From positions 416,001-480,000 of the forward strand of contig NZ_JAQNDL010000004.1 of NCBI RefSeq assembly GCF_028368995.1: DNA of 64,000 nucleotides, in the 5' to 3' direction. The notes beneath the pieces were generated by a model. It searched no databases. It worked only from the letters and a program-made list of their open reading frames with translations, and was not told where the DNA came from. Shown in pieces: positions 1-41,443 of the stretch. The DNA is from Nannocystis bainbridge. GTDB taxonomy: Bacteria; Myxococcota_A; Polyangia; Nannocystales; Nannocystaceae. A program made the position numbers and the translations under genes. Each line of letters starts with the position of its first letter. The stretch's first letter is position 1.

Positions 1-93
1 GCTCACGCGCGGGTGACGGCGCTGCAGGCGGCGCTGGGGCTGGCGGACGCCGACGTGGTGCCAGTCGCGTACGCCGACCTGCTCGGGCTGTGA
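1..93 (+). CDS. 3' end of a gene entering the window, possibly CYTH/class IV adenylate cyclase family
   Basis: Frame 1 reads AHARVTALQAALGLADADVVPVAYADLLGL then TGA; the LG...YxDLL C-terminus resembles CYTH proteins. Confidence 0.4.
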   Translation, partial: AHARVTALQAALGLADADVVPVAYADLLGL

Positions 94-104
94 GCGGGAC
101 GTAG

Positions 105-184
105 GGACATGTCCGCGAGGGCATGTGCCTGCGGACATGTTTAATCAGACATGCCCGATCGGGCATGCCGGGAGGGACAGGTTC
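105..184. repeat. 14-bp-period GGRCATGYCC array (6 units)
   Basis: Cores CATG at 108,122,136,150,164 and CAGG at 178; convergent junction abutting the hemH stop. Confidence 0.9.
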
Positions 185-1280
185 AGGCCGAGAGGGTCGC
201 CGGGGGCCGGTCGGTGAGGATCGGCAGGGCGCGCGGGTGGGGGGCGGCCTCGCGGATGAGGGTGGCGAGCGCGTTGACCCATACCGGGTGGTCGTTGAGG
301 CAGGGGACGAGGCGCAGGTCCTCGCCGCCGGCGGCCTTGAACGACTCGGCGGCGCGGATCCCGATCTCCTCGAGCGTCTCCAGGCAGTCGGCGACAAAGG
401 CGGGGCAGAACACGGCCAGGCGGCGGACGCCGCGGCGAGCCAGCTCGACCAGCGCGACGTCGGTGAACGGCTGGATCCACGGGGTGCGGCCGAGGCGGGA
501 CTGGAAGGCGATGCTGGTCGCTTCGCGGGCGAGGCCTAGGCGGTCGCGCAGGGCGCGGGCGGTGGCGACGCAGTGGGCGCGGTAGCAGTTGCGGTTGTTG
601 AGACCGATGGTGTCGCAGCAGTCGGGGCGGGCCAGGCAGTGGGCGCCGCTGGGGTCGCTCTTCTTGACCTGGCGCTCGGGCAGGCCGTGGAAGCTGAACA
701 TGACGTGGTCGGGGCGGAAGTCCTCGAGCACAGGCGCGCCGACGCGGGCGAGCGCGTCGATGAAGGCCGGGTGGTCGTAGAACGGCGGGACGATGGTGAG
801 GAACGGGGTGTTCCACGGCTCGCCGGCGGCGCGGTAGAGGGCCTCGACGGTCGATCCGGTCGAGCTCGAGGCGTATTGCGGGTAGAGCGGGACGGCGACG
901 ATCCGGTCGCAGCCGCGCGCCTTCAGGGCGTCGAGGCCGCGCTGCAGCGAGGGCTCGCCGTAGCGCATGGCGAGCTCGATCTCGAGGTCGGGCATGGCGA
1001 CGCGCAGGGCCTCGGTGAGCTGGCGCGAGTGGTGCAGCAGGGGCGAGCCGTCGGGGCCCCAGACGGTGCGGTAAGCGGCTGCGGAGCGCGCCGGACGGAA
1101 GGGGAGGATGACGAGGTTGAGCAGCAGCCAGCGGCCGACGGCGCCGATGTCGAGGACGCGCGGGTCGGACAGAAACTCGCGCAGGTAGCGGCGGACCTCG
1201 GGGGCGCGCGGGGCGGCGGGCGTGCCGAGGTTGATGAGGAGGACGCCGAGCTTCGGTTCGGGGCGCATGCGCGGGCGCAT
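183..1280 (-). CDS. hemH: ferrochelatase
   Basis: GVLLINLGTP, YLREFLSDPRV, PLYPQYASSSTGS, FSFHGLP, FQSRLG, FVADCLETLEEI motifs; start trimmed to ATG 1280 (or 1268). Confidence 0.95.
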   Translation of the reverse strand: MRPRMRPEPKLGVLLINLGTPAAPRAPEVRRYLREFLSDPRVLDIGAVGRWLLLNLVILPFRPARSAAAYRTVWGPDGSPLLHHSRQLTEALRVAMPDLEIELAMRYGEPSLQRGLDALKARGCDRIVAVPLYPQYASSSTGSTVEALYRAAGEPWNTPFLTIVPPFYDHPAFIDALARVGAPVLEDFRPDHVMFSFHGLPERQVKKSDPSGAHCLARPDCCDTIGLNNRNCYRAHCVATARALRDRLGLAREATSIAFQSRLGRTPWIQPFTDVALVELARRGVRRLAVFCPAFVADCLETLEEIGIRAAESFKAAGGEDLRLVPCLNDHPVWVNALATLIREAAPHPRALPILTDRPPATLSA

Positions 1281-1335
1281 CGTGGCGCGGTTCGCCAGGC
1301 GCCGCAACTGCGCGGCGGCTTGACGCGGGCCAGGG

Positions 1336-2121
1336 GTGCGCGCGACGTTTGCAGCGGTGACGGAGCGGCAGAGCCTGGCGCCAGGTGAGGTCCACGTGTG
1401 GCTGTGCGCGGCCGAGACGCAGGTCGACGCCGACTGGTTGGCGGCGGCGCGCGGGCTGCTGAACCCGGAGGAGCAGGCCCGCCAGGATCGCTTCGTGTTC
1501 GAGCGCAACCGCCGGCAGTTCGCGGTCGCGCGGGTGCTGGTGCGCCAGATCCTCGCCGGCTACACGGGGATCGCGGCAGCCGAGCTGCGCTTCGTCGCCA
1601 ACGAGTACGGCAGGCCGGCGCTGGCCCTGGCCGGCGCGCTCGAGTTCAACCTGTCGCACACCGACGGGCTGGCGGCGCTGGCGGTGACCCGCGTCGGCGA
1701 GATCGGGGTCGACGTCGAGGACGCCGAGCGACGCGCGCGGCCGGAGGAGGTGGCCGACCACTTCTTCGCGCCGAGCGAGGTGGCGGGGCTGATGGCGCTG
1801 GAGACCGAGCAGCGGCGGGCCCGGTTCTTCGACCTGTGGACGCTGAAGGAGGCGTACATCAAGGCGCGCGGGATGGGCCTGGCGATCCCGCTGGACGCGT
1901 TCGCGTACGACCTGTCGCGCGGGCGCGCGGCGATCGATCTGGCGATCGACGCGTCGCTCGGCGATCCGCGCGCGGGCTGGGAGTTCTTCCTGGAGGACCC
2001 GACGCCGCGCCACCGCCTGGCGCTGGCGGCCCGCTTGCCCGCGAGGGAACCCGCGCGGATAACGTATCGGTGGGTCGGTCCGGCCGGGCACGGGCGGCTC
2101 GGCCTGCGAGATGGTCCTTGA
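1336..2121 (+). CDS. 4'-phosphopantetheinyl transferase (Sfp type)
   Basis: YGRP, FNLSHT, IGVDVE, WTLKEAYIKARG motifs. Confidence 0.92.
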   Translation: MRATFAAVTERQSLAPGEVHVWLCAAETQVDADWLAAARGLLNPEEQARQDRFVFERNRRQFAVARVLVRQILAGYTGIAAAELRFVANEYGRPALALAGALEFNLSHTDGLAALAVTRVGEIGVDVEDAERRARPEEVADHFFAPSEVAGLMALETEQRRARFFDLWTLKEAYIKARGMGLAIPLDAFAYDLSRGRAAIDLAIDASLGDPRAGWEFFLEDPTPRHRLALAARLPAREPARITYRWVGPAGHGRLGLRDGP

Positions 2122-2172
2122 GACATGTTTTTATGGACATGTCCGAACGGACCTGTTCTTCACGACCTGTGA
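2107..2172. repeat. 14-bp-period GGRCATGYCC array (5 units)
   Basis: Cores GATG 2110, CATG 2124, CATG 2138, CCTG 2152, CCTG 2166; convergent junction. Confidence 0.85.
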
Positions 2173-2211
2173 TGCCGCGGCGCGACGGGATTCACTCGAA
2201 CGTGCGCGGCC

Positions 2212-2252
2212 CGAAAGCGAAACGACCGCCCCGGGGCTCCGGAGCGGTCGCT
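2212..2252 (-). terminator. probable intrinsic terminator of trpS
   Basis: Minus strand CGACCGCTCCGG-AGCC-CCGGGGCGGTCG hairpin followed by TTTCGCTTTC, about 20 bp after the stop. Confidence 0.55.
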
Positions 2253-2272
2253 GGGCGGCCTGGCGGCGGGGC

Positions 2273-3352
2273 TCAGCCCTTCTGGCTGTAGAAGGGCTTC
2301 TTGCGCTCCTCGGCGCGCGACTGGGTGGCGTGCACGAGGCCTGACCACAGGTTCTCGAGGCCCATGGCGTCGCGGACCTTGCCGAGGGTCTCGTAGGCGA
2401 CCTTGCGGGCGGTGATGGTGCCGTCGACGATGATCTCTTCAGTGCGGTGCTTGTCGGCCGCGAACTCGGACCGGCGCTCGCGGATCGGGACCAGGGTCTT
2501 CTCGAGCGCCTCGATGACGCGGTCCTGGACGGCGGCGAAGCCGATGGCGCCGCGGTCGTACTCGGCGCGGAGGTTGGCCAGCTCCTCGGCGTCGCGCAGG
2601 AAGGCCTCGGCGAACAGGAACAGCGGGGCGTCGGTCGACTCGCCGGGGGCCGGGCCGGGCAGGGTGCGGATCTTGCGAGCGACCTCCTCGGGGCTGTCCT
2701 TGAGCCAGATCGCGTTGCCGGCCGACTTCGACATCTTGCGCTCGGCACCGCCGGCGACGGTGTTGACGCCCGGCAGCGACGGGGTCGCCGAGATGGTGGC
2801 CTGCGGGACCGCAAACACGCGGCCGTAGGCGTCGTTGAAGTGCTGGGCGATGTCGCGGGCGAGGGTGACGTGGGTCTCGTTGTCGGCGCCGACCGGCACG
2901 AGCTCGGCGTTGGCCATGAGAATGTCGGCGGCCTGGAGCACCGGGTAGCCGAGCAGGCCGAGCGGCACGTCAGCGTCCTTGAGGCCGGCGTTGACGGCCA
3001 TGTCCTGGATCGACTGCATGCCCGACAGCCGCGCCACCGGGGTGAGCATCTGCAGCAGGATGGCGATGTCGTAGACCGCCGGTACGCCCGACTGGAGGTA
3101 GATCGTCGAGCGGCCGGGGTCGACGCCCACGCTGAGCATGTCGAGCACCACGTCGCGCACGTGGTTCGGCAGGCGGGCAATCTCGTCGCGCCGCGAGCGG
3201 GTCGTGAGCGAGTGCAGGTCGGCGACGATGATGAAGCACTCGTGGCTGTCCTGCAGTTTGACCCGGCTCTGCAGGGTGCCGACGAGGTGACCGAGGTGAA
3301 GCGGCCCCGTGGGGCGATCACCAGTGAGCAGTCGCGGTTTGCGAGCTTCCAT
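2273..3352 (-). CDS. trpS: tryptophan--tRNA ligase
   Basis: TGDRPTG, HLGH (HIGH), YPVLQAADIL, KMSKS motifs. Confidence 0.95.
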   Translation of the reverse strand: MEARKPRLLTGDRPTGPLHLGHLVGTLQSRVKLQDSHECFIIVADLHSLTTRSRRDEIARLPNHVRDVVLDMLSVGVDPGRSTIYLQSGVPAVYDIAILLQMLTPVARLSGMQSIQDMAVNAGLKDADVPLGLLGYPVLQAADILMANAELVPVGADNETHVTLARDIAQHFNDAYGRVFAVPQATISATPSLPGVNTVAGGAERKMSKSAGNAIWLKDSPEEVARKIRTLPGPAPGESTDAPLFLFAEAFLRDAEELANLRAEYDRGAIGFAAVQDRVIEALEKTLVPIRERRSEFAADKHRTEEIIVDGTITARKVAYETLGKVRDAMGLENLWSGLVHATQSRAEERKKPFYSQKG

Positions 3353-3360
3353 CGAGTTCA

Positions 3361-3389
3361 AGGGTCAAGGCCGGCTCTCCCTGTGTCAA
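3361..3389 (-). promoter_or_regulatory. possible sigma70-like promoter of trpS (near-leaderless)
   Basis: Minus strand TTGACA-N17-GACCCT ending 8 bp before the ATG; -10 is weak. Confidence 0.3.
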
Positions 3390-3419
3390 GCCAACGGGTT
3401 CGCGCATCGCGGAACGACA

Positions 3420-3445
3420 CACAGCTGTCTCATGGGACAGCTGTG
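3420..3445. promoter_or_regulatory. inverted repeat upstream of trpS (operator-like)
   Basis: CACAGCTGTC-TCATGG-GACAGCTGTG, perfect 10-bp arms. Confidence 0.4.
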
Positions 3446-3557
3446 CGTGGACCTGCGACTCGGGCTTGCAAAGAGGGGGTGACCAAATGCGAAGCGCCGC
3501 GACCGAAGGCGGTCACGGCGCATCCGCGCTCCGCGGATCTGGCGGCTGCGAACCAGA

Positions 3558-3941
3558 TCAGCGCAACGCTTCACGCAGGCGCGGCTTGATGTCCGGGAGC
3601 ACCACGCTGACGAGGATGCCGAGCTGCGCCTTGCTGCAGTCGACGGCCATACCCCAGCGATACTTGTCGGTGAGGTCGACCACCACGATCATGACGATGC
3701 CCTCGTCGCCGAGGCGGAGCATGGTCTCGTTCAGATAGTCGGGGACGGGCAGACCCGACTTCTTGATCGTCTCCATGATGCGCTCACAAAGGATGTTGAA
3801 GAGCGCGCACGCCTTGGGGCTGCTGCGAACGCCGGCGACCGACATGCCGGACGTTTTGCTGAAGACGTCGGAGGCGGCCAGGCCACCCATCAGACCGTCT
3901 TCCACCTCAGCGAGCAGTTGGTTTACGACTTTGAGATTCAT
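3558..3941 (-). CDS. hypothetical protein, roadblock/LC7-like
   Basis: 127-aa ORF; pattern GLAASDVF..GMSVAG..helix..VVVDL..WGMAVD..AQLGIL fits a roadblock-type alpha/beta fold (inference). Confidence 0.6.
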   Translation of the reverse strand: MNLKVVNQLLAEVEDGLMGGLAASDVFSKTSGMSVAGVRSSPKACALFNILCERIMETIKKSGLPVPDYLNETMLRLGDEGIVMIVVVDLTDKYRWGMAVDCSKAQLGILVSVVLPDIKPRLREALR

Positions 3942-4091
3942 TTCGAGTTCCTTCGTGATCCGTGCAGTCGGTGCCAGGTCATGGTAGCCGTGGCGCGGGG
4001 CGACAATCTATCACTTTTTGCACGATCCGGACAGCCGTCCAAACGGCCCGAGCGGCGCGCCGCACGTGGCCGCAAGGCCCGTTCGGCGCGG

Positions 4092-4559
4092 TCAGAAGCT
4101 CAGCCCGCGGATCGGCGGCGGCGCGTCCTGCTGCGTCTCCTTGAGGTAGTGCTTCGCAGCCCTCCGCAGCAGCGCCTTGAGATCCTCGGTGTCCCAGGGC
4201 TTCGTGACGTACTGCCACATCAAACCCTCGTTGAGGCCGCGAATTACCACGTTGATGTCGGAGTAGCCGGTGATCAGGATGCGCACCGGCGTCGGGTTGA
4301 TCTCCTTGAGCTTGCCGAACAGCTCGACACCCGTCATCTCCGGCATGCGCTGGTCGCTGAGAACCAGCTGAATGTCGCTGGCCCGGAAGATCTGCAGCGC
4401 CTCGGTGCCCGAGTTGGCGGTGTAGACCTTGAACATGTCGCGGAAGCTCTCCTCCAGCGTGTTGAGGATGCCCCGCTCGTCGTCGACGATGAGCAGCGAG
4501 AGGACCTGCTTGTCCTCTTGGCCGATCGTGCCGGTCTTCTGGAATTCCTTCCAACTCAT
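4092..4559 (-). CDS. stand-alone response regulator receiver protein
   Basis: LLIVDDE, LVLSDQRMP (phospho-Asp), ILITG, KPW motifs; no output domain. Confidence 0.92.
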   Translation of the reverse strand: MSWKEFQKTGTIGQEDKQVLSLLIVDDERGILNTLEESFRDMFKVYTANSGTEALQIFRASDIQLVLSDQRMPEMTGVELFGKLKEINPTPVRILITGYSDINVVIRGLNEGLMWQYVTKPWDTEDLKALLRRAAKHYLKETQQDAPPPIRGLSF

Positions 4560-4791
4560 GCAATACCTCGCTTCTCGCTGGGCAACCGGTCGTAGCGCGG
4601 GGAACCCTCGACGCGAGAGAGAGTCTGCTCCGTTCGCGCATGGTGGCAGGGGCGCATCCGGTTCGCAAGGGCCCCTTGGAGCCGCTCGCAGGAGCGCTGG
4701 TGGAGCGAGCCAGGGCCGGGGAGGCCGTGGCGCCCGGAGGACCTCGAAAGCGACCCGTGAGGCCTGCTAGGGCCTTTTCGCGCGTGAGTGG

Positions 4792-6207
4792 TCACAGTAA
4801 ATCTCCTGTACCACCGTCCGCTCCGCGCACGTAGCGGAAAGTGGACGCAAAGTGGCGAATTCCGGGGGCTTCGACCTCGAAGCGAAGGCCGTGGCGCATG
4901 CGCTGGCCCTTCTCTTCGAACACGGTGCGCACCACGTCGGCGACGTACTCGAGGTGCTCCATGGTGTAGACGCGGCGCGGGATGGTGATCCGGCACAGGT
5001 CGAGGTTGGGGCGGATGTTCTCGCCGGTGTCAGGATCGCGGCCGATGAGGACGCTGCCGACCTCGACCGCGCGCACTCCGCCCTCTTTGTAGAGCTCGAC
5101 GCAGAGCAGCTGGCCGGGGAACTCGTCCTCGGGCACGTTGCCGAAGAAGCGCCGCGCGTCGATGAACACCGCGTGACCGCCGAGCGGCTCGACCAGCGGC
5201 ACGCCAGCGGCGCTGAGCAGCTCGCCGAAGCGCTTGACCTGACCGATGCGGTAGGTGAGGTACGGCTCCTCGGTGACCTCGCGCAGGCCCTGCGCCAACG
5301 CCTCCATGTCGGCGCCCGACATGCCGCCGTAGGTGTAGAAGCCCTCGAACAGGATCGTCGGCGCCTTGAGGCGCTCGTACAGCAGGTCGTCGCGCACGGC
5401 GATGAACCCGCCCATCGGCACGAGCGCGTCCTTCTTCGCGCTCATGATCGCCGCGTCGGTGTAGCTGCACATCTCGGCGACGATCTCCGGGATCGTCTTG
5501 GTCGCGTAGCCGGGCTCGCGGTGCTTGATGAACCACGCGTTCTCGGCGAAGCGCGCGGCGTCGAGGATGACGAGGAGGCCGTACTGGTCGGCGATCCGCC
5601 GCACCTCGCGGATGTTCTCCATCGACACCGGCTGACCGCCGCCCGAGTTGCAGGTGACCGTCATCAGGATGTACGCGACGTGGCGCGGGCCGTACTCGCG
5701 GATGACGCTCTCGAGCTTGGCCAGGTCGACGTCGCCCTTGAACGGGTGGTAGCCCGTCGAGCTGCGGCCGGCGTCGATCGTGCAGTCGATCGCGCGGCCG
5801 CCGGCGAATTCGATGTGCGCCTTGGTCGTGTCGAAGTGCGAGTTGCCGGGCACGATCATGTGCTTTTTGATCAGCACGAAGTCGAGCACGCGCTCGGCGG
5901 CGCGACCCTGGTGGGTCGGGATGGTGTAGCGGTACCCCATCGTCTCGCGGATCTGCCGCTCCATCTCGAAGAAGGAGCGTGAACCGGCGTAGGCCTCGTC
6001 GCCGATCATCATGCGGCCCATCTGGGCCGCCGAGAGGGCTCCGGTGCCGGAGTCGGTCACGAGGTCGATGTACACGTCGTGCGATGCGAGGCGGAACAAG
6101 TTGTTGCCGCACGCCTCGATCCGCCGGACCCGCTCCTCATAAGGGAGCAGCGCGATCGGCTCGACGACCTTCGCCTTGTACGGGATGATCTGTCTGGCTC
6201 TGCTCAT
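4792..6207 (-). CDS. tnaA: tryptophanase (tryptophan indole-lyase)
   Basis: IDLVTDSGTGA, GDEAYAGSRS, THQGRAAE, HFDTT, MSAKKD (PLP Lys), GGHAVFID, C-terminal RHF; Asp in FDTT and His in RHF are tryptophanase-type rather than tyrosine phenol-lyase (FTTT/RFF). Confidence 0.88.
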   Translation of the reverse strand: MSRARQIIPYKAKVVEPIALLPYEERVRRIEACGNNLFRLASHDVYIDLVTDSGTGALSAAQMGRMMIGDEAYAGSRSFFEMERQIRETMGYRYTIPTHQGRAAERVLDFVLIKKHMIVPGNSHFDTTKAHIEFAGGRAIDCTIDAGRSSTGYHPFKGDVDLAKLESVIREYGPRHVAYILMTVTCNSGGGQPVSMENIREVRRIADQYGLLVILDAARFAENAWFIKHREPGYATKTIPEIVAEMCSYTDAAIMSAKKDALVPMGGFIAVRDDLLYERLKAPTILFEGFYTYGGMSGADMEALAQGLREVTEEPYLTYRIGQVKRFGELLSAAGVPLVEPLGGHAVFIDARRFFGNVPEDEFPGQLLCVELYKEGGVRAVEVGSVLIGRDPDTGENIRPNLDLCRITIPRRVYTMEHLEYVADVVRTVFEEKGQRMRHGLRFEVEAPGIRHFASTFRYVRGADGGTGDLL

Positions 6208-8288
6208 GGGCTCTCCGCGGCCTTGGCGGCCCCTTCGGTCCTCGTGCCCGGGTCCTTGGGCTCGGTCGGGATCCGAATGAGGAAGGTTACCCCCGCCGTT
6301 TCATTGCGCGTCACTGCGATGGTCCCCTGGTGCTCCATCACGATCCGGTAGCTGATCGACAGGCCCAATCCTGTCCCCTTGCCGACCGGCTTGGTGGTGA
6401 AGAAGGGATCGAAAATCTTCGAGAGGTTGGCTTCCGAGATGCCTTCGCCGTCGTCCTTGACCGCGATCTCGACCCAGGCGCCGTTGACCCGCGTGTCCAC
6501 GTGAACTTCGCCCCCGCGCGGGGTGGCGTCGATCGCGTTGTTCACGAGGTTCAGTACTACCTGGTTGAGCTTGGCAGGGAAGCAGGCGTAAGGGCGCGTC
6601 AGCGTGAGGTCGGACGTCAACTTGACGCCCTGGTCGCGCGCGTTGTTGGAGAGGATCATCAGGGTCTGACGGATCCCCTCGTCGATGTCGGCGTTCTGGA
6701 ACTGCGCCTCGTCGAGGCGGGCGAAGTTGCGGAGCCCGAGCACGATCTCGGCCATGCGATCGAGGCCGATGAAGCACTCCTCGAGCACCTTCTGCGTGCG
6801 CGCGAGGACCTCGTCGAGCGAGCCTTCCTTCTGCTCGCGGCTCTGGCTGACGTAGCTGAAGAACATCTTGAGCAGCTCGAGCTGCTTCGGCGCGGGCATG
6901 CTGCCGAGGTCGGCGATGACGTCCTTGGCGTCGGAGCCGATGTCTTTGTCTTCCTTCAGCTTGTCGAGGATCGCCCGGGCCGCGCTGACGCGCGCATGCG
7001 GGTCGCCGCCGGCGTCGGCCTCGAGCCAGCGCTGGACCGCGAGCCGCCGCGCGACCTTGAGGACGCGCTCGTGGGCGAGGTGCGTGTTGTTGCGGCTGAA
7101 GGCCAGCGGGTTGTTGATCTCGTGGGCGACGCCGGCGGTGAGCTGGCCGAGGCTGGCGAGCTTCTCGCCCTGGACGAGCTGGGCCTGGGTCTGCTTGAGC
7201 TCGACGAGGCTCTCCTGGAGGCCCTCGTAGAGCTGGTTGTTCGTCAGCGAGATCGCGGTCTGGCTGGCGAGCGAGAGCGTCAGCTCGAGCGCGGCGTCGT
7301 CGTACGGGAGGACGACGCTGTCGATGTCGGCGGCCGTCAGCGTGGCGGTGCGCGAGATCTTGCGGTTGATGAGCTGGAGGACGCCGATGACCTGGTCGTC
7401 CTGGTTCTTCATCGGCAGCACGAGCATGCTGCGCGTGCGGTAGCCGGTGCGCTGATCGAAGGCGGGGTTGAAGCTGTACTCGGCCTTGGGATCGAGCAGG
7501 TAGGCGTCAGGGATGTTGACGGGCTCGCCGGTGACGGCGACGTAGCCGGCGAGGGTGCTCTTCGAGACCGGGATGGTGAACTTGACCAGCTCGAGGTGCG
7601 GCAGCGAGTCGTTCTGCGAGTTGTTGAAGCGCAGGCGCCTGGTGCCGGACGCGTCCTTCTCGACGATGTAGAGCGAGCCGGCGTCGGAGCAGGTGAAGTC
7701 GCGGGCGGTGGTGAGGATGAAGTCGAGGAGCCGCTCCTGATCACGCTCGGTCGACAGGGCGATGCCGATGCGATTGAGCTTGGTGATCTCGCCGGCGAGG
7801 CGGCGACGCTCGGCCTCGAGGCCGAGCAGACGATCGTCGGCGGCGGCGTCGCGGAGGGCGGTGCGGAGCGCGACCTGGAGCGCGGCGGCACCTGGCTCCG
7901 GGGACAGGATCGAGGAGAGCACGTCGCCGAAGCGCTGCTGCAGCGCGTCGGCGCCGGAGCCCGGCAACATGCTGATGATGCGGGTGGGGCCGACGGGCTG
8001 GAGCTCGACGCGGCCGTCGTCGCAGAGGAGGTGCTCGTCGAGGAGGACGATGCACGACCGACCGGCGCGCCGCGTGGCGACGACGGTGCCGAGCTCGCGC
8101 GGAGCGACGGGTCGCAGCTCGCCGGACGAGCGGCACAGAGCGGCGGTCGCCGAGCCGGCGAAGGCCGCCGAGCACAGCAGCAGCGGGGTCAACGGCTCGG
8201 GACGAGGCGCAGGCACAGGCCCGGTGGGTCCGGCCGCGTCACCCGGGGGCGCGGTGCTGGCTGCGTCGTCGGCCTGCACAGTGTTCAT
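6204..8288 (-). CDS. GAF-domain sensor histidine kinase
   Basis: GAF ([25 protein letters not shown]), H-box [36 protein letters not shown]; stop overlaps the tnaA ATG. Confidence 0.93.
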
Positions 8289-8441
8289 GATGGTCGGAGA
8301 ACCGGAGCGCAAAAACAAGAGTCACCGCTGCATCTGCACGACGTGAGGTCGGTGCCCGCGGACCCACACCGACGTCGCGACGACGACGCGGCGCGGGCTG
8401 CACCCGCGACGCGTCGAAGTCCTCAGCGGACGATACCGCGC

Positions 8442-9812
8442 TCACATGTTGACTTCGGGCAGCTCGGCCAACGCCGCCTCGATCGCCGCCTGCGGGTAGG
8501 CGTAGTCGGTCAGCTCGCCGCGGAAGTAGGCGTCGTAGGCCGTCATGTCGAAGTGGCCGTGGCCGCAGAGGTTGAACAGGATCACCGGCGAGGTGCCCTC
8601 TTCCTTGGCGCGGATGGCCTCGCGGATCACCTGAGCCACGGCGTGGCCGGCTTCGGGCGCGGGGACGATGCCCTCGGCGCGCAGGAAGGTGACCGCCGAC
8701 TTGAAGGCCTCGAGCTGCGGGACCGAGTAGGCCTCGATCAGCTTCTGGTCGTACAGCTCGCTGATGACGCTGCCGACGCCGTGGTAGCGCAGGCCGCCCG
8801 CGTGCACCGGCGGCGGGATGAACTTGGCGCCGAGCGTGTGCATCTTGACCATCGGCGCCATGCCGGCGGTGTCGCCGTAGTCGTAGGCGTACACGCCGCG
8901 CGTGAGGGTCGGGCAGGCCGCGGGCTCGACCGCGACGACCCGCACGTTGCGGCCGTGGACGATCTTGTCGCGCAGGTAGGGCACGGCGATGCCGGCGAAG
9001 TTGCTGCCGCCGCCGACGCAGCCGACGATGATGTCGGGGCTGTCACCGGCGCGGTCGAGCTGCAGCATCGCCTCCTGGCCGATGACCGACTGATGCATCA
9101 GCACGTGGTTCAGCACCGAGCCGAGCGCGTACTTGTACTTGCCGCCGCTCTTGGCCGCCATCTCGACGGCCTCGCTGATGGCGATGCCGAGGCTGCCGGT
9201 GCTGTCCGGATCCTGGGCCAGGATCGATCGCCCCGACTCGGTGCGGTCGCTCGGGCTGGCGGTGACGTTGGCGCCGAAGCTCTGGATGATCGCGCGCCGG
9301 TACGGCTTCTGGTGGAAGCTGACCTTCACCATGAAGACGTGGCACTCGAGGTTGAAGAAGTTGCAGGCCTGCGACAGGGCAGTGCCCCACTGACCCGCGC
9401 CGGTCTCGGTGGTCAGGCCGACGACGCCGGCCTGCTTGTTGTAGAAGGCCTGCGGGATCGCGGTGTTCAGCTTGTGGCTGCCGCTCGGCGAGACGCCCTC
9501 GTACTTGTAGTAGATCTTCGCCGTGGTCCCGAGGGCCTTCTCCAGGCGCCTGGCCCGCATCAGCGGCGTGGGGCGCCACAGCTTGTAGATCTCCCGGACC
9601 TCCTCCGGGATGTCGATGAAGCGCTCGCGCGAGACCTCCTGGTTGATGATCTCCGCGGGGAACAGCGGCAGCAGGTCGTCTGGAGTAACCGGGCTCTTGG
9701 TACCGGGGTGCAGGACCACGGGGAGCGGGCGCGGAAGATCGGCCTGGATGTTGTACCAACGTGTCGGAATTGCGCTCTGGGGGAGTTCAAAACGCGTCAG
9801 GGACTCGGTCAT
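8442..9812 (-). CDS. trpB2: TrpB2 (TrpB-like PLP enzyme, tryptophan synthase beta type 2)
   Basis: WYNIQADLP, WRPTPL, GSHKLNTA, TETGAGQWG, GSVLNHV, GGGSNF, HAGGLRYHG, PAPE, CGHGHFD; 456 aa; no trpA nearby. Confidence 0.93.
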   Translation of the reverse strand: MTESLTRFELPQSAIPTRWYNIQADLPRPLPVVLHPGTKSPVTPDDLLPLFPAEIINQEVSRERFIDIPEEVREIYKLWRPTPLMRARRLEKALGTTAKIYYKYEGVSPSGSHKLNTAIPQAFYNKQAGVVGLTTETGAGQWGTALSQACNFFNLECHVFMVKVSFHQKPYRRAIIQSFGANVTASPSDRTESGRSILAQDPDSTGSLGIAISEAVEMAAKSGGKYKYALGSVLNHVLMHQSVIGQEAMLQLDRAGDSPDIIVGCVGGGSNFAGIAVPYLRDKIVHGRNVRVVAVEPAACPTLTRGVYAYDYGDTAGMAPMVKMHTLGAKFIPPPVHAGGLRYHGVGSVISELYDQKLIEAYSVPQLEAFKSAVTFLRAEGIVPAPEAGHAVAQVIREAIRAKEEGTSPVILFNLCGHGHFDMTAYDAYFRGELTDYAYPQAAIEAALAELPEVNM

Positions 9813-10151
9813 TCGCGGCGCTCCAGTCTCGCTCGACCTTTATATCGCGAGGCGTCGCTGCGACAAAGGCCCACGGGTCGGTCGCGGCCTCGGCTTTCGT
9901 CGGCGGGCTGCGGTCCTTGCCCCGTGTTCGCCGAGGTGCACCCCGAGCCGTAGATCGGCTGTTCTTTGGGCCATGCGCCGCAATTCGCGGGGCGCGCCGG
10001 CCGCTGCGCCCGGCGCCCGTGCGCATGCGCGTGGACGCGCCGGGTCGGCAAAACCGGCTGAAACGGGCTTCTGGGGCCATTTGGCGGGCCTCGCCGCGGC
10101 GCGCTTCGGCCGATGCGCGCGGAGTCACGGACCGCGGCGCGCGGACAGGTG

Positions 10152-11870
10152 TCACCGCCGCTTTGCCGCGCGTAGGCGCGCGAAGTACTCGCGGTAGGCC
10201 CGCATCGTCACGCCGGCGAACAGCAGCGTGATCGGGATGTTGACCCACAGCATCACGCCAGTGCCGACCGAGGTGATGTTGTCGAGTTCAGCCTCGGTGC
10301 TGATCCAGCCTGCGCAGGCGAGCAGGATGCTCAGGCAGTAGACGATCTTGTACGGGACGACTGACCGCCGTCCCGCCATGTAGACCATGCCCTGCTCGCC
10401 GTAATAGGCGTACGAGATCATGGTCGACACCGCGAACAGCCACGAGGCCACGGCCACGAGCCACTTCCCGAGCCCCGGGGCCACGCGATCGAAGGCGTGG
10501 CTGGTCAGCGCGGCGCCGACGTAGTCCTTGTAGACGTCGAGGCCTGCGAGCGCAGGCGCGCTGGCGAGCGGCGCCGCCGGGGAGCCCACCGGAGACCAGT
10601 CGACATAGAGGCGATCTCCCGCCCCGACAGCGACGACGCCGCTGACTCGCTGCAGGTCGCCGCCGGTGGCCGGATCGATCGGGCCGTAGCGCGCGAGCAT
10701 GAACACCCCGTCGCCGGGCCGCCAGCCGGTGCCGGTGATCGCCAGCGCCTGCGCATGTTTCTCGGGCAATGGCGTATCGGACAGGTCCCAACAGCCAGGT
10801 TCGATCTGGACCGCGGCCGGCGGGGCGGACAGCGAGGCCTCGCCGTCGCGACACCAGGCGCCGCTGGCCAGCACGACCAGCGAGGTGAGGGTGCAGACGA
10901 CGAGGGTGTCGATGAAGGGCTCGAGGCCGGCGACCACGCCCTCGCGCACGGGCTCGTCGGTCCGCGCGGCGCAGTGGGCGATCGGCGAGGTGCCCTGGCC
11001 GGCCTCGCTCGAGAACAGGGCCCGCTTCATGCCCCACACGAAGGCGGCGCCCGAGGTGCCGCCGACGAACGCGCCGGCGGCGTCGGCTGGGGAGAAGGCG
11101 GAGGCGACGATGAGGCGCAGCATCGCCGGGATGTCGGCGACGTGGACCGCGAGCACGTAGAGGGCGGCGGCGAGGTAGAGGAAGCACATCGCCGGGACCA
11201 GGGCGCCCGCGACGGCGCCGATCCGCTTGATGCCGCCGAGGATGACGGCGCCGACCAACAGCGCGAGCACGACGCCGACGGCCTGCTGCGGCACGCCGAA
11301 GCTCTCCTCGGTGACGATGCCGACGTTCCACGCCTGGAACATGTTGCCGCCGGTGAGCGTGCTGATGAGGAGGGTGATGCAGAACAGGACGCCGAGGACG
11401 CGGCCGACGGGCCGCAGCTTCTCGCTGCGCTGGGCGAGGCCGTCGTCGGCGACCCACATCGGCCCGCCGCTCGGCTCGTCCGGGTTGTCGGTGCGCCGGT
11501 ACAGCATCGACAGCGTGACCTCGGTGGTCTTGAGCGCCATGCCGGCGATGCCGACCATCCACATCCAGAACACCGCGCCCGGGCCCCCGAGCGCGATGGC
11601 GACGGCGACCCCGCCGATGTTGCCGAGGCCCACGGTGGCCGACAGCGCGGCGGAGAGGGCCTGGAAGTGGCTGATGGCCCCGGGCGCGTCGGGCTTGTCG
11701 TAGTCGCCGCGGATGATGGCGACGCCGTGGGTGAGCGCGTGGTACTGGCAGAAGCCGCTCCACACGGTGAACAAGAGGCCGGTGGCCATCACGGCGTAGA
11801 GCACGCTGTCGTGCCACAAGACCGCGTTGATGGCCGTCAGCCAGTCGTTGATGGCGATCCAGATCTCCAC
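10152..11870 (-). CDS. alanine/glycine:cation symporter (AGCS family)
   Basis: ATVGLGNIGGVA, GGPGAVFWMW, GGIKRIG, KRALFSSEAGQG, FIDTLVVCT, YYGE motifs. Confidence 0.92.
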   Translation of the reverse strand: MEIWIAINDWLTAINAVLWHDSVLYAVMATGLLFTVWSGFCQYHALTHGVAIIRGDYDKPDAPGAISHFQALSAALSATVGLGNIGGVAVAIALGGPGAVFWMWMVGIAGMALKTTEVTLSMLYRRTDNPDEPSGGPMWVADDGLAQRSEKLRPVGRVLGVLFCITLLISTLTGGNMFQAWNVGIVTEESFGVPQQAVGVVLALLVGAVILGGIKRIGAVAGALVPAMCFLYLAAALYVLAVHVADIPAMLRLIVASAFSPADAAGAFVGGTSGAAFVWGMKRALFSSEAGQGTSPIAHCAARTDEPVREGVVAGLEPFIDTLVVCTLTSLVVLASGAWCRDGEASLSAPPAAVQIEPGCWDLSDTPLPEKHAQALAITGTGWRPGDGVFMLARYGPIDPATGGDLQRVSGVVAVGAGDRLYVDWSPVGSPAAPLASAPALAGLDVYKDYVGAALTSHAFDRVAPGLGKWLVAVASWLFAVSTMISYAYYGEQGMVYMAGRRSVVPYKIVYCLSILLACAGWISTEAELDNITSVGTGVMLWVNIPITLLFAGVTMRAYREYFARLRAAKRR

Positions 11871-11995
11871 GAGCGGACGAGGGCCGCATGATGGCGGCCC
11901 GACCTGCGCGGCGCAATGACCGGGGCGGGGCCAGGCGAGCGGTCGGCGACTTTGCTGGATTAATTAAAGGAGAGGCGCGGCGGCCGGCCCGCGGC

Positions 11996-12970
11996 TCAGC
12001 CGGCCGGGGCGGATGGGGCCACCGGGGGCGGGCTCGCGGCGGCGGCGGACTGGCCGGCGGCGAGCGGCGTGGCGGGGCTCGTCATCGGCGTCGCGGGCGG
12101 GTCGGCGGCGTCTGCGGGCGCGGGCTTGCCGAGCTGCGGGGCGTCAGGACGGATCCCCGGCGGGACCTCGACGCGCTCGCCGACTGTGATGAGGCTGGCG
12201 TAGCGGAGCAGGCTGACCTTCACCAGCAGATCGGAGAAGGCCCACTCGGTCTCGAAGTTGGTGGCGACGGGGATGTCGACCGCGCCATCGGGGCCGGGCG
12301 CGGGCAGCTCGCGCGAGGGGACGCGCGTGGGTGGGCCGTAGACGCGGGTGTAGTGGGCGACGGCGTCCTCGTAGTCGGCGAGCGCGGGCGCGGGGTCCTT
12401 GGCGGTGCGCTGGTACGAGACGTGGCGCAGCGGATGATCGACGCTGTCGAACACGAACAGCAGGCGGCCCTCGGACCGCGGCCGCGGGCGATCGGTGAGC
12501 TGCTCGCTGCGGGTCTTGGGGCAGCTGAAGCGGACCTGCGGGTTGGCCTCGCGCTTGCTCTTGCGATCGAGCCACGAGGCGGCGGTGACAGCGTCCTCGC
12601 CGCGGGCGCGGGCGTCCTCGAGGCGCTTGCGCTCGACCTTGCGGCGACCCTCCATGCTGGCGCGGATCGAGGTGTCGCCGCAGGCGAGGCCGAGGCGCGC
12701 GGCGAGGGCCTCGGCGTCGGCGACGTGGTGGCGGCCGACGTCGGTGTGCATGGCGACGGTGACGGGCGCGCGCGGCCCCGGGCGCGGATCTTTGAACTCG
12801 AAGCGCCACTCCTGCTCCCTGCGCGCGAACAGGCCGGCGAGGCCGGAGCCGGTCGCGGTCGCGGTCGGCTGGGTGGGCTCCGCGGCGGGCTCGGGCCGCT
12901 GTTCGCCAGCGCCGCAGGCGGCGAGGCCGAGGACGCAGGCGAGAAGGGTGAGGCGCGAGGCGAGCAGCAT
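11996..12970 (-). CDS. hypothetical lipoprotein
   Basis: MLLASRLTLLACVLGLAAC lipobox; start trimmed downstream of the repeat tract. Confidence 0.7.
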   Translation of the reverse strand: MLLASRLTLLACVLGLAACGAGEQRPEPAAEPTQPTATATGSGLAGLFARREQEWRFEFKDPRPGPRAPVTVAMHTDVGRHHVADAEALAARLGLACGDTSIRASMEGRRKVERKRLEDARARGEDAVTAASWLDRKSKREANPQVRFSCPKTRSEQLTDRPRPRSEGRLLFVFDSVDHPLRHVSYQRTAKDPAPALADYEDAVAHYTRVYGPPTRVPSRELPAPGPDGAVDIPVATNFETEWAFSDLLVKVSLLRYASLITVGERVEVPPGIRPDAPQLGKPAPADAADPPATPMTSPATPLAAGQSAAAASPPPVAPSAPAG

Positions 12971-13003
12971 GGGAGGCGCGGGAAAGTTCTCGAAGGGCGG
13001 TGT

Positions 13004-13297
13004 GAACTTCGGGACAGGTCGATGAGGATCGAGATGAACTTCGGGACAGGCGCGGGTGCGGTGGCTCGGAGGGGGAAGTGTCGCGCGACGCTTCGGAGGC
13101 GGAGGTTCGAGGTGAACTTCGGGACAGGTCGCGCGGGAGGCCGGATGAACTTCGGGACAGGTCGCGCGGGAGGCCGGATGAACTTCGGGGCAGGTCGCGC
13201 GGGGCTTGGGGCGGGCCGGAGATCGGGGGAACTTTGGGACAGGTCGCGCGGGGACGCGGGGCCGGGGGCGGGTGTACTTCGGGACAGGTCGCGCGGG
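13004..13297. repeat. 7 dispersed copies of GAACTTCGGGACAGGTC(GCGCGGG)
   Basis: Copies start at 13004,13036,13114,13147,13180,13229,13274. Confidence 0.9.
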
Positions 13298-13314
13298 TGG
13301 CTGCGGAGCGGTGG

Positions 13315-13800
13315 TCAGCGGCCGAGCAAGATGCGGGCGCCGGCGATCGCCTGGCGCAGCTCGGGGTCGCTGACGTCGGACATGGCGCGGCTGGTGGCGT
13401 CGCTGGGCTCGGCCGTCATGGTCGGCGGAGCGAGCGCGGCTGCGGGCAGGGCGAGCGGGCGCGGGCTGGGCGTAGGGACGGCGCCGAGGCGGAACCTCAG
13501 GCCGCCGAGGCGGGCCTCGGGGGCCAGCTGCTGGAGCTTGCCCAGGAGCTGGTCCCGCGAGTACATCAGTTCGTGGTGGTACTGACTGTCCTCGACCACG
13601 ACGATGACCTCGTCCCGCACGACCGCGAGCGGATAGGCGCGCCCGCGCAGCCACGGCATGTTGAGCCGCTCCCAGGCGGCGCGGACGTAGACCAGCCGGA
13701 CCATGTGGTCGGGGACGATGGTCTTGACCAGCCGCCACACGGCGTCGGCGAGCGGCTGCGGACCGCGGGCGAACGAGCGGCGAGGACGACGGGCGGCCAT
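13315..13800 (-). CDS. DUF721/DciA family protein
   Basis: PQPLADAV...AWE...VIVVVEDSQYHHELMYSRDQLLGKLQQ...LRFRLG pattern. Confidence 0.7.
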   Translation of the reverse strand: MAARRPRRSFARGPQPLADAVWRLVKTIVPDHMVRLVYVRAAWERLNMPWLRGRAYPLAVVRDEVIVVVEDSQYHHELMYSRDQLLGKLQQLAPEARLGGLRFRLGAVPTPSPRPLALPAAALAPPTMTAEPSDATSRAMSDVSDPELRQAIAGARILLGR

Positions 13801-13809
13801 CACCGTCGA

Positions 13810-14220
13810 GTGTGCCACACCGCGCTGGCGTGGGCGGCGGCGCTCCTCACGCTCGGATGCGCGGCCCGGTCCGGATGGGAGCGGACCGACGCGCGGGCCT
13901 GCCGCCCGGCCGATCCGCCGCGGATCTGCGTGCTCGCCGAGCCCGACCGGGCCCTGGTGGTCCGCGCGGGCGGGACGGCGCTGGTGCCCGGCGAGTGCGC
14001 GTCGTCGCCCCGGCGCCGCGGCGGGTCGCTTCACGTGACGGCAGAGGACGGTCGAACCGGGGCGCGAGACGACCGCTGGCTGCGGACCGGTCGCGGGGCG
14101 ACGACGCGGATCACGGCGACCAACAAGGCGAAGCCGCGGGTGGTCGAGCGCGACCGCTGCACCGGGCAGATCGAGGCGGACATGGCCGAAGGGTCATCCG
14201 CAGCGCGCGGCCGCGAGTGA
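13810..14220 (+). CDS. hypothetical lipoprotein
   Basis: GTG start, ALAWAAALLTLGC lipobox, several Cys. Confidence 0.55.
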   Translation: MCHTALAWAAALLTLGCAARSGWERTDARACRPADPPRICVLAEPDRALVVRAGGTALVPGECASSPRRRGGSLHVTAEDGRTGARDDRWLRTGRGATTRITATNKAKPRVVERDRCTGQIEADMAEGSSAARGRE

Positions 14221-38456: not shown

Positions 38457-39437
38457 TCACCACAGGTAGCGCTTCTCCCAGCGCAGCGGGACGAAGTAGC
38501 GGTCGCCGCGGTCGCACAGGATGGTGACGACCACGCCGCGGCGGCCCTCCGCAGACAACTGCTTGGCGATCCGCAGCGCGCCGGCGACGTTACCGCCCGA
38601 GGAGTGGCCGACGAACAGGCCCTCCTCCCGGGCGAGCCGCTCGGCCATGTCCCAGCCCTCGTCGGTCGGCAGCCAGATCGTGTCATCGAGCACGCCGGCG
38701 TCGTAGATCGCCGGCACGATGCTCGAGGGCAGGTGCTTCATGCCCTCGAGGCCGTGCATGGCGTCGTCGGGCTGGATGGCGACGCAGCGGATGTCGCGGC
38801 TGAACTCGTGGAGCCGGCGCGAGGTGCCGACGACGGTGCCGCTGGTGCCGATGCCGGTCACGAAGTGAGTGACGCGGCCGCCGGTCTGCTGCCAGATCTC
38901 GGGCGCGGTGGTGTGGTAGTGCGCCAGCGGGTTGTTGGGGTTGCCGTACTGGTCGGCGTAGTGCCAGCGCTCGGGGTGACGCTCGACGAGCTCGTGGGCC
39001 AGCACGATCGCGCCGTCGCTGCCCTCCATCGGGCTGCTGTAGACGATCTCGACCCCGTACGCGGTGGTGACCTGCTTGCGCGGGGCGCTGACGTTCTCGG
39101 GCATCACGAGGGTGACGGGCACGCCGAGCGCGGCGCCGACCATGGCGTAGGCGATGCCGGTGTTGCCGCTGGTGCTGTCGATGAGGCGCACGCCCGGGCG
39201 CAGCAGGCCGCGCGCGAGGGCGTCACGCACGATCCGCAGGGCGGCGCGATCCTTGACCGAGCCGGCCGGGTTGCAGAACTCGCACTTGGCCCAGATCTCG
39301 ACGCCGGGCGTGGCGCGATCGATGTGGTGCAGCCGCACCAGCGGGGTGTTGCCGACGAGGTCGACGATGCTGTCCGTTCGGACAGCTCGCCCCGGACGCA
39401 GGTCGCTCAGGAGTTGTTCGCGGCCGGTGGGCAGCAT
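38457..39437 (-). CDS. cysM: cysteine synthase, CysM type (probably sulfur-carrier dependent)
   Basis: GNTPLV, NPAGSVKDR, TSGNTG, GTSGT, HGLEGMKH; neighbours MoaD-like and JAB genes. Confidence 0.85.
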   Translation of the reverse strand: MLPTGREQLLSDLRPGRAVRTDSIVDLVGNTPLVRLHHIDRATPGVEIWAKCEFCNPAGSVKDRAALRIVRDALARGLLRPGVRLIDSTSGNTGIAYAMVGAALGVPVTLVMPENVSAPRKQVTTAYGVEIVYSSPMEGSDGAIVLAHELVERHPERWHYADQYGNPNNPLAHYHTTAPEIWQQTGGRVTHFVTGIGTSGTVVGTSRRLHEFSRDIRCVAIQPDDAMHGLEGMKHLPSSIVPAIYDAGVLDDTIWLPTDEGWDMAERLAREEGLFVGHSSGGNVAGALRIAKQLSAEGRRGVVVTILCDRGDRYFVPLRWEKRYLW

Positions 39438-39450
39438 GGGGCGTGCGCGC

Positions 39451-39723
39451 TCAACCGCCGGCGATCGCGGGGACGATGCTGATCTCGTCGCTGGCCTTGA
39501 CCGCGGTGCCGAGGTTGTCGAGGAAGCGGATGTCGTCCTCGCCGACGAACACGTTGACGAACCGCCGCACCTTGCCGGCCTCGTCGCAGATCCGCTCCTT
39601 GATCCCCGGGTAGCTCTGCTCGAGGCCGTCGAGCACGCCGGCGACGGTCTCGCCTTCGACGGTGACCTCTTCGCGGCCTTGGGTGTACTTGCGCAGGGGA
39701 GTGGGGATCCGGACGTTCGGCAT
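39451..39723 (-). CDS. MoaD/ThiS/CysO ubiquitin-like sulfur carrier
   Basis: IPTPLR, RRFVNVFVGEDDIRF, C-terminal PAIAGG. Confidence 0.92.
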   Translation of the reverse strand: MPNVRIPTPLRKYTQGREEVTVEGETVAGVLDGLEQSYPGIKERICDEAGKVRRFVNVFVGEDDIRFLDNLGTAVKASDEISIVPAIAGG

Positions 39724-39754
39724 GACGGTGTGTTCAGTATAATGAACAGGGCGC

Positions 39755-40489: not shown

Positions 40490-40495
40490 CGGGCC

Positions 40496-41443
<948 letters not shown>

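Follow-up and report, generated by a model that had tools for sequence, protein, structure and literature searches.

A histidine kinase-tryptophanase-receiver gene association accompanied by further tryptophan genes in Nannocystis bainbridge

The DNA analyzed here is a stretch of 64,000 nucleotides, hereafter the window, from Nannocystis bainbridge (RefSeq assembly GCF_028368995.1, contig NZ_JAQNDL010000004.1, positions 416,001 to 480,000; in our numbering G000:C4:416001-480000). It belongs to an 11-Mb genome available as 5 contigs. Open reading frames (ORFs) and family scans indicate that its minus strand carries seven co-oriented genes between positions 2273 and 11870. From upstream to downstream, these are:

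10152..11870, minus strand: AgcS, an AgcS-family Na+/alanine-type amino-acid symporter (PF01235, E 1.9e-113; TIGR00835, 398.3 bits for a cut-off of 272.65)
8442..9812, minus strand: TrpB2, a stand-alone TrpB-like enzyme dependent on pyridoxal phosphate (PLP), of the indole-salvage type (NF009057, TIGR01415)
6204..8318, minus strand: a cytoplasmic GAF-HisKA-HATPase histidine kinase (HK; Pfam GAF, E 2.5e-13; HATPase_c, E 1.4e-26)
4792..6207, minus strand: TnaA, a predicted tryptophanase (PF01212, E 4.6e-77; NF009709, 629.4 bits for a cut-off of 285)
4092..4559, minus strand: a REC-only response regulator with a conserved N-terminal extension (PF00072, E 1.4e-22)
3558..3941, minus strand: p127, a 127-aa protein with a predicted Roadblock/LC7 fold (AlphaFold2 model and Foldseek)
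2273..3352, minus strand: TrpRS2, a second tryptophanyl-tRNA synthetase, TrpRS II-like (TIGR00233, 254.6 bits for a cut-off of 176.75)

This cluster combines a two-component system with tryptophan (Trp)/indole enzymes, an arrangement that is not described in the literature that we searched. Largely at the level of abstracts, the search returned no description of a tryptophanase in a two-component operon or of a cluster of TrpB2 and tryptophanase. The original prediction, made from the sequence alone, had listed six co-oriented minus-strand genes: their identities are right and the ends of the range match the stop of TrpRS2 and the start of TrpB2. The seventh co-oriented gene, AgcS, lies outside this range and had been missed. 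On the opposite strand, the neighbors of the cluster are genes encoding a ferrochelatase and a PPTase.

Intergenic distances are 339 bp between AgcS and TrpB2, 123 bp between TrpB2 and HK, 232 bp between TnaA and REC, 150 bp between REC and p127 and 205 bp between p127 and TrpRS2. The start of tnaA overlaps the stop of the HK gene by 4 bp, and this is the sole tightly coupled pair in the cluster. Furthermore, tnaA, TrpB2 and this type of TrpRS are each found in one copy in the genome. As a rough estimate, the chance that both auxiliary Trp genes lie within ~5 kb of tnaA is (10 kb / 11 Mb)^2, i.e. ~1e-6.

Conservation of the arrangement was examined on 79 tnaA loci fetched from genome contigs (10 from Nannocystis and 69 others). 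In the 10 Nannocystis loci, gene order is kept as far as each contig extends: five carry all seven genes, three are cut upstream and carry HK through TrpRS2, and one is cut downstream. The tenth (L067) carries AgcS through p127 and has no TrpRS2 despite more than 8 kb of additional sequence. AgcS is adjacent in all six Nannocystis genome loci whose contig extends that far, and the tnaA genes of named Nannocystis species share 97-99% identity with that of the window. None of the 69 other loci has the arrangement; they show scattered weak matches, either kinase-like (L032, L039, L069 and L071) or AgcS-like (L049), and in L082 a receiver-like ORF (31%) lies ~0.8 kb downstream of tnaA.

TnaA orthologues with at least 73% identity were found in 15 of 61 related genomes, and in all 15 the gene lies directly 3' of an HK orthologue. 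These are the genome studied here, all 10 other Nannocystis, both genomes of a genus designated g4 and two of the three genomes of another, g2. The receiver gene follows tnaA in the window and in the five fetched tnaA-bearing loci (L099-L102 and L113). The two g2 genomes have the order HK-TnaA-REC, and the two g4 genomes (L099 and L100) the order p127-HK-TnaA-REC, with a 4-bp overlap between HK and tnaA and a gap of 17-20 bp between tnaA and REC. Hence p127 is associated with the triad in two genera, at its downstream end (after REC) in Nannocystis and at its upstream end (before HK) in g4.

A survey of 401 evenly sampled Myxococcota genomes showed that stand-alone TnaA-like genes are common in this phylum (152 genomes have a match at E<=1e-60). 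Among the top 30 TnaA loci that were checked, the triad occurs in a single locus besides that of the window: genome G323, from another class, encodes a GAF-HK (567 aa), a TnaA (67%) and a REC (51%), flanked by unrelated genes (one glycosyltransferase-like, the other plsX). A full-length REC orthologue was found in two of the 401 genomes only, that of the window and G323. In a TnaA tree built from 31 rows picked from the fetched loci, the eight triad-linked rows form one branch (support 100/99), whose sister consists of stand-alone TnaAs with 57-65% identity. Metagenomes gave the cluster in 3 of 80 loci, all Nannocystis-like, and no other triad; the five of the 80 loci that encode a TnaA with 62-65% identity have neither kinase nor receiver. 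The HK-tnaA-REC association is therefore conserved, of single origin and tightly packed. The genes of the original prediction are conserved neighbors and not a random set. Among the neighborhood links implied by the original prediction, that of HK, tnaA and REC extends to three Nannocystaceae genera and G323 and that of p127 to two genera, whereas those of TrpB2 and TrpRS2 are restricted to Nannocystis.

TnaA is a member of the beta-eliminating lyases, and its MSAKKD stretch aligns with the PLP-lysine motif S-x-K-K-D of solved tryptophanases, the best solved relative being tryptophanase 8sbg (E 2.3e-140). Alignment to 8sbg and to tyrosine phenol-lyase (TPL) chains places Asp126, His452 and Val383 at the positions of TPL Thr124, Phe448 and Arg381. 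The three residues are unchanged in six TnaA orthologues. Asp and His at the first two positions, together with the lack of an equivalent of Arg381, are the mark of Trp-type specificity, and by these residues TnaA is predicted to be a tryptophan-type enzyme. Its score is below the TPL equivalog cut-off (522.2 for 720.7). "Indole production" by Nannocystis strains FL3, NCELM and BB15-2 is given as negative in Table 3 of PMC10435759 (strip test). The full cluster, with a 99% identical TnaA, is present in FL3 (L009) and NCELM (L008).

The kinase comprises a variable REC-like N-terminal domain, a long helix, a GAF domain, a DHp domain with an insert of ~100 aa and a catalytic ATPase domain. The model of its residues 1-380 (pLDDT 78) accordingly displays a disordered tip, a REC-like alpha/beta domain, a long helix, the GAF domain and a helix leading into DHp; the best Foldseek match across both domains is the "dual sensor" REC-GAF kinase 6oap. 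The sequence of the GAF domain is nearest to those of PDE5A GAF-A (E 8.7e-21) and CyaB2 (E 9.3e-21), and also of the GAF domains of PDE2A and PDE10A. Foldseek agrees, since cyclic-nucleotide-binding GAFs are among its top structural matches. In the printed alignment, it has the stretch FN..DQ.TGY.T.S.L..P.KN in common with PDE5A GAF-A, PDE2A GAF-B and Anabaena CyaB2. Unlike in these proteins, the GAF domain is here part of a histidine kinase that has a REC-like domain at its N-terminus. From the above matches, the ligand of the GAF domain is most likely a cyclic nucleotide or a similar molecule rather than indole. The proposal that the kinase senses indole or Trp finds no sign in the GAF domain, which is nearest to GAFs that bind cGMP or cAMP. 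In one Nannocystis locus (L010, G007:C2:1860571-1862654), the kinase matches as two overlapping pieces (residues 2-574 and 568-694), indicating a frameshift or assembly error around residue 570.

Both partners have the signature residues of two-component systems, i.e. the H-box histidine and the ATPase domain in the kinase and the acidic pocket, Asp, Thr and Lys in the receiver. The H-box histidine (HEINNPL) is constant in all six HK orthologues, and D26, D27, D69, T97 and K120 of the receiver in all 11 orthologues. From the conserved adjacency and these intact catalytic residues, we infer that HK would transfer its phosphate to this receiver. Since the receiver has no output domain, output through protein-protein contacts, as suggested originally, is the natural reading. 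G036 (L103, G036:C34, 6919-11491) shows a different row of signaling genes: a REC-GGDEF-EAL gene comes first, followed by orthologues of HK (55%) and REC (67%).

The sequence of p127 matches no Pfam family at E<=1, including Robl_LC7. However, its "roadblock-like" label is upheld by the predicted fold: the AlphaFold2 model (pLDDT 91.2, pTM 0.84) displays the alpha-beta-beta-alpha-beta-beta-beta-alpha order of Roadblock proteins, and Foldseek relates it to archaeal Roadblock3 (9jue), MglB and the roadblock domains of LAMTOR/Rag (probability 1.0, TM ~0.7). In the PDB, 99 structures match at E<=0.001, led by Roadblock3, Rag, LAMTOR and MglB. No MglA-like or other small Ras-like GTPase turned up in the scanned neighborhoods, a genome-wide search for a partner not having been made. 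The predicted REC-p127 complex has scores of 0.01 and 0.04 for a mark of 0.32, which is evidence neither way.

The p127 family was found in 3 of 41 sampled genera. One paralogue of this genome (47% identity; G000:C3:742451-742819, L004:5992-6993) is the C-terminal part of a frame of ~333 aa that begins with a DUF4388 (PATAN) domain. Frames of ~280-340 aa are kept at this PATAN-type paralogue in all three family-bearing genera, which suggests that a PATAN-Roadblock fusion protein exists at this site. Moreover, in genus g4 a gene encoding a REC-DUF4388 (PatA-like) protein lies divergently beside p127 (L099:8623-9378 and L100:11972-12832), and this neighbor is a second link of the p127 family to PATAN regulators. 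A search of the literature for PATAN and Roadblock returned unrelated papers only.

TrpB2 passes two equivalog models, NF009057 (709.9 bits for a cut-off of 366) and TIGR01415 (607.9 bits for a cut-off of 518.85); the canonical trpB-trpA pair is on another contig of this genome. Its orthologues in g2 and g4 (70-77% identity) are unlinked to the cluster (0 of 6 loci). The translation of TrpRS2 carries the HLGH and KMSKS motifs and is 32% identical to the housekeeping TrpRS, whose gene adjoins that of SerRS. The best solved relatives of TrpRS2 are 6ncr (1.7e-88) and then the Deinococcus TrpRS II structures 1yi8/2a4m (E 1.1e-65), and the housekeeping enzyme ranks an ordinary bacterial TrpRS first (3m5w, 2.7e-85). 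TrpRS2 is present in 9 of 11 Nannocystis genomes and adjoins p127 in all nine. Orthologues with 45-65% identity were found in 12 genomes of other genera, and none of the 12 fetched loci holds another gene of the cluster. A gene for a SerA-like 2-hydroxyacid dehydrogenase with an ACT domain lies divergently beside TrpRS2 in L087 (8073-9338) and L092 (10562-12154), and a Methyltransf_32 gene lies beside the orthologue in L087 (10636-11844) and L089 (8660-9871). TrpB2 and TrpRS2 were thus recruited to the core in Nannocystis, their orthologues in sister genera being unlinked. A role of TrpRS2 in self-resistance of the indolmycin type was also considered and set aside: no biosynthetic genes flank the cluster, and the TrpRS2 orthologues elsewhere are in housekeeping-like contexts.

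Two candidate signals were recognized in the intergenic regions:

4003..4019, minus strand: an A-rich/TGATAGATTG motif 5' of p127, which may be a separate promoter element for this gene, kept across Nannocystis loci
3420..3445, minus strand: a perfect 10-bp inverted repeat with a 6-nt spacer 5' of TrpRS2, a candidate operator or hairpin (from reading of the sequence)

The first is constant in 10 Nannocystis loci, including divergent ones, whereas the adjoining intergenic sequence is not. The inverted repeat is kept among the closest species only, with changes in one arm. No Rfam family was found in positions 1-14000 at E<=1, hence no T-box and no leader RNA, and a six-frame reading of every upstream region gave no Trp-rich, tnaC-like leader peptide. 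A consensus promoter scan found 0 promoters, and a terminator scan of the minus strand gave nothing convincing beyond a weak hairpin (11993-11976). In L067, the gap between TrpB2 and HK reaches 395 bp, vs ~120 bp in other Nannocystis, and is filled by a short tandem repeat of ~14 bp.

Contigs of RNA libraries from root, rhizosphere and soil (three studies), which come from Nannocystis-like organisms with ~90-97% likeness, also match this stretch. One contig (X8, 2741 nt, 3509-6202) bridges tnaA, REC and p127, and another (X12, 1441 nt, 3490-4921) bridges the 3' end of tnaA, REC and p127. Two shorter ones bridge REC and p127 (X7, 883 nt, 3699-4581) and REC and tnaA (X14, 703 nt, 4395-5097). TrpB2 (8427-9816) and TrpRS2 (2288-3371) are on separate contigs that end near the gene ends. 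Such contigs prove neither transcription nor a single transcript and are a weak hint only; DNA may be present in the libraries.

Taken together, these data led us to consider that the locus is a conserved functional module tying a cytoplasmic two-component pathway to Trp/indole metabolism, a reading to which we give about an even chance. Its core operon would comprise the GAF histidine kinase, the tryptophanase and the stand-alone receiver. As tnaA is translationally coupled to the kinase gene, the enzyme would be made whenever, and in proportion as, the signaling pair is made. With its GAF domain, the soluble kinase would detect a ligand inside the cell, most probably a cyclic nucleotide to judge from homology, and, given its intact catalytic residues, would phosphorylate the receiver. 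The latter would act by binding other proteins, and its linkage in two genera makes p127 the most likely partner or scaffold. The tryptophanase, an enzyme type assigned from the specificity residues, would convert Trp into indole, pyruvate and ammonia. In Nannocystis, TrpB2 would turn indole back into Trp, TrpRS2 would uphold the charging of tRNA-Trp during depletion of the Trp pool or a rise in indole compounds, and a small amino acid would be transported by the AgcS-type carrier. With these additions, indole would stay transient and low, not accumulating in bulk. The negative bulk test would be explained by TrpB2 and TrpRS2 limiting indole build-up. From the Trp/indole switch imagined at the outset, the link of signaling with Trp/indole enzymes is real; the claim of sensing is weakened, and the locus does not look like one tight six-gene operon.

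Several observations weigh against such a module. The linkage of TrpB2, AgcS and TrpRS2 with the core is a feature of Nannocystis only, where background synteny is expected, and one genome of this genus (G009, 83% complete) lacks TrpRS2 although it has the cluster. Gaps of 123-339 bp and the conserved motifs that p127 and TrpRS2 have at their 5' side argue against a single operon. The putative GAF ligand is deduced from ~30% identity to cyclic-nucleotide GAFs. TnaA scores below both NCBIfam equivalog cut-offs (NF053783, 566.4 for 750; TIGR02617, 480.5 for 825.8) and passes the subfamily model NF009709 only. The indole-negative result of FL3 and NCELM fits tight control or recapture, but equally an enzyme that is unexpressed or that does not act as a tryptophanase under the conditions of this test. 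p127 is away from the core in g2 (0 of 3 p127 loci) and in G323, and this genome has three p127 paralogues in unrelated contexts. Lastly, in G036 (g2, 86% complete) HK and REC are adjacent without tnaA, and no TnaA match was found in this genome at E<=1e-60; the signaling pair can therefore exist without the enzyme.

The best surviving alternative, which we nevertheless consider rather unlikely, is a starvation-controlled catabolism of Trp, with the tryptophanase as output and the kinase reading the nutritional state, for instance via a cyclic nucleotide. Once phosphorylated, the receiver, possibly together with p127, would switch the activity or the localization of the tryptophanase, leading to the release of pyruvate and ammonia, and TrpB2 and TrpRS2 would shield protein synthesis from Trp depletion. 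In E. coli, tna expression depends on cAMP-CRP, and the GAF domain of the kinase is of the cyclic-nucleotide type. A receiver without DNA-binding domain makes a protein target from the same operon plausible. Moreover, stand-alone catabolic genes of the TnaA type are frequent in the phylum, as counted above, and the carrier gene upstream is reminiscent of catabolic operons. However, TnaA and TrpB2 would form a futile cycle if both were active, and a contact between REC and TnaA is without direct evidence. The Roadblock adaptor and the divergent REC-PATAN (DUF4388) gene of g4 rather point to a network of the signaling or motility type. Nor does this explanation agree well with the cluster-bearing strains in PMC10435759, for which the strip test reports no bulk indole.

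According to a second alternative, which is the version of the original prediction and which we hold to be unlikely, the GAF kinase would itself sense indole or Trp in an autoinducer or prey-cue circuit, with the tryptophanase as signal synthase and TrpB2 as sink, much like the synthase-receptor pairs used in quorum sensing. The position of a synthase-like enzyme between kinase and receiver, translationally coupled to the former, favors such a circuit, as does the gathering of two more Trp/indole genes beside tnaA in Nannocystis. A negative bulk indole test is compatible with production at a low, signal level. By contrast, the nearest characterized GAF relatives bind cGMP or cAMP, and G036 retains HK and REC without tnaA. 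CpxA is a membrane kinase whose architecture differs from that of the cluster HK. The latter is in fact unlike known indole sensors, among which PMC6550529 names CpxA. On the favorable side, indole is reported to induce sporulation in Stigmatella aurantiaca, as cited in PMC3126691.

Finally, it is improbable that only the HK-tnaA-REC core is functional and that TrpB2, AgcS, TrpRS2 and possibly p127 are incidental genus-level synteny: this would suit the confinement of the first three to Nannocystis, the intergenic regions, putative promoters and separate RNA-library contigs that the flanking genes have of their own, the lack of TrpRS2 in G009 and its location elsewhere beside SerA-like dehydrogenase and methyltransferase genes, but not the presence of both auxiliary Trp-specific genes at most 5 kb from the only tnaA of the genome, the move of TrpB2 and TrpRS2 from unlinked ancestral sites, or the linkage of p127 to the core at a different position in a second genus. 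Nor would it suit the breaks in synteny. A tblastx comparison of three loci, used for the breaks in L067, L014 and L015 only, showed that downstream synteny ends right after TrpRS2 (L015) and right after p127 (L067), while the cluster is kept with HK identity down to 66%.

The module that we favor, a two-component pathway tied to Trp/indole metabolism, can be compared with several known systems. Control of the E. coli tna operon (tnaC-tnaA-tnaB) is tied to the nutritional state through cAMP, and as in that operon, a tryptophanase with Trp-type residues and a transporter gene occur in the cluster. Unlike in E. coli, no Trp leader peptide lies upstream, the carrier belongs to the AgcS family and is not a TnaB-type permease, and tnaA, with a sequence identity of ~45-50%, lies between a histidine kinase and a receiver. 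In quorum-sensing operons such as agrBDCA, comQXPA and luxMN, a synthase is encoded with its sensor kinase. The cluster likewise encodes an enzyme for a diffusible small molecule with a histidine kinase and a response regulator. It differs from them in that the kinase is cytoplasmic with a GAF of the cyclic-nucleotide type, the regulator has no DNA-binding domain and the ligand is probably not indole.

The TrpRS II of Deinococcus has a described link to nitric-oxide synthase. Like that of Deinococcus radiodurans (1yi8, 2a4m), TrpRS2 is a divergent second copy beside a housekeeping TrpRS, but its top solved match is 6ncr and it adjoins a tryptophanase locus, in Nannocystis only. The fold of p127 is similar to that of Roadblock proteins of the MglB/MglC type (MglB 3t1s, 6izw and 6h5b, TM ~0.73), which together with RomR belong to the polarity module of Myxococcus. 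The resemblance to these polarity proteins is limited to the Roadblock fold and to a receiver-domain gene next to that of p127, in a gliding myxobacterium. Unlike MglB, to which it has 8-14% sequence identity, p127 has no match to Pfam Robl_LC7.

Indole is a widespread bacterial signal, and to our knowledge no dedicated locus for its production and response is known in myxobacteria. A tryptophanase hard-wired to a kinase-receiver pair would be a concrete and genetically tractable candidate for such a locus in cultivable strains, and the recruited indole-salvage enzyme and extra TrpRS make this case stronger. The sporulation of the myxobacterium Stigmatella aurantiaca is induced by indole according to PMC3126691, which refers to Gerth 1993 and Stamm 2005 on this point. 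We can thus imagine, as a speculation with little chance of being right, a private indole circuit of Nannocystaceae in which the tryptophanase, co-translated with the cytoplasmic kinase, would release pulses of indole, TrpB2 and TrpRS2 would quench and buffer them and a kinase-receiver-Roadblock branch with PATAN/REC proteins would act on gliding polarity or on fruiting and sporulation. If true, this would be a new kind of synthase-embedded two-component signaling and would give a genetic handle on indole-triggered myxospore formation. Furthermore, TrpB2 and the TrpRS II-type synthetases, two enzyme classes of which little is understood, have a natural context in this locus, and the Roadblock-fold proteins gain a family with no obvious GTPase attached to it.

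Some other features of the window were observed. The G+C content is 0.64-0.68 at positions 3000-7000 (p127, REC, tnaA and the 3' part of HK) vs 0.71-0.74 in the flanks, and the GC3 of REC and p127 is 0.83 vs 0.91-0.95 for adjoining genes. Directly 5' of AgcS, the minus strand carries an open frame of 580 aa (11996-13738) without Pfam or NCBIfam family; G009 (L113) has a counterpart of this frame, with 52% identity, in the equivalent position. Further away, two adjoining genes of the PALP family (PLP-dependent) are also found on the minus strand (38511-41416, i.e. G000:C4:454511-457416).

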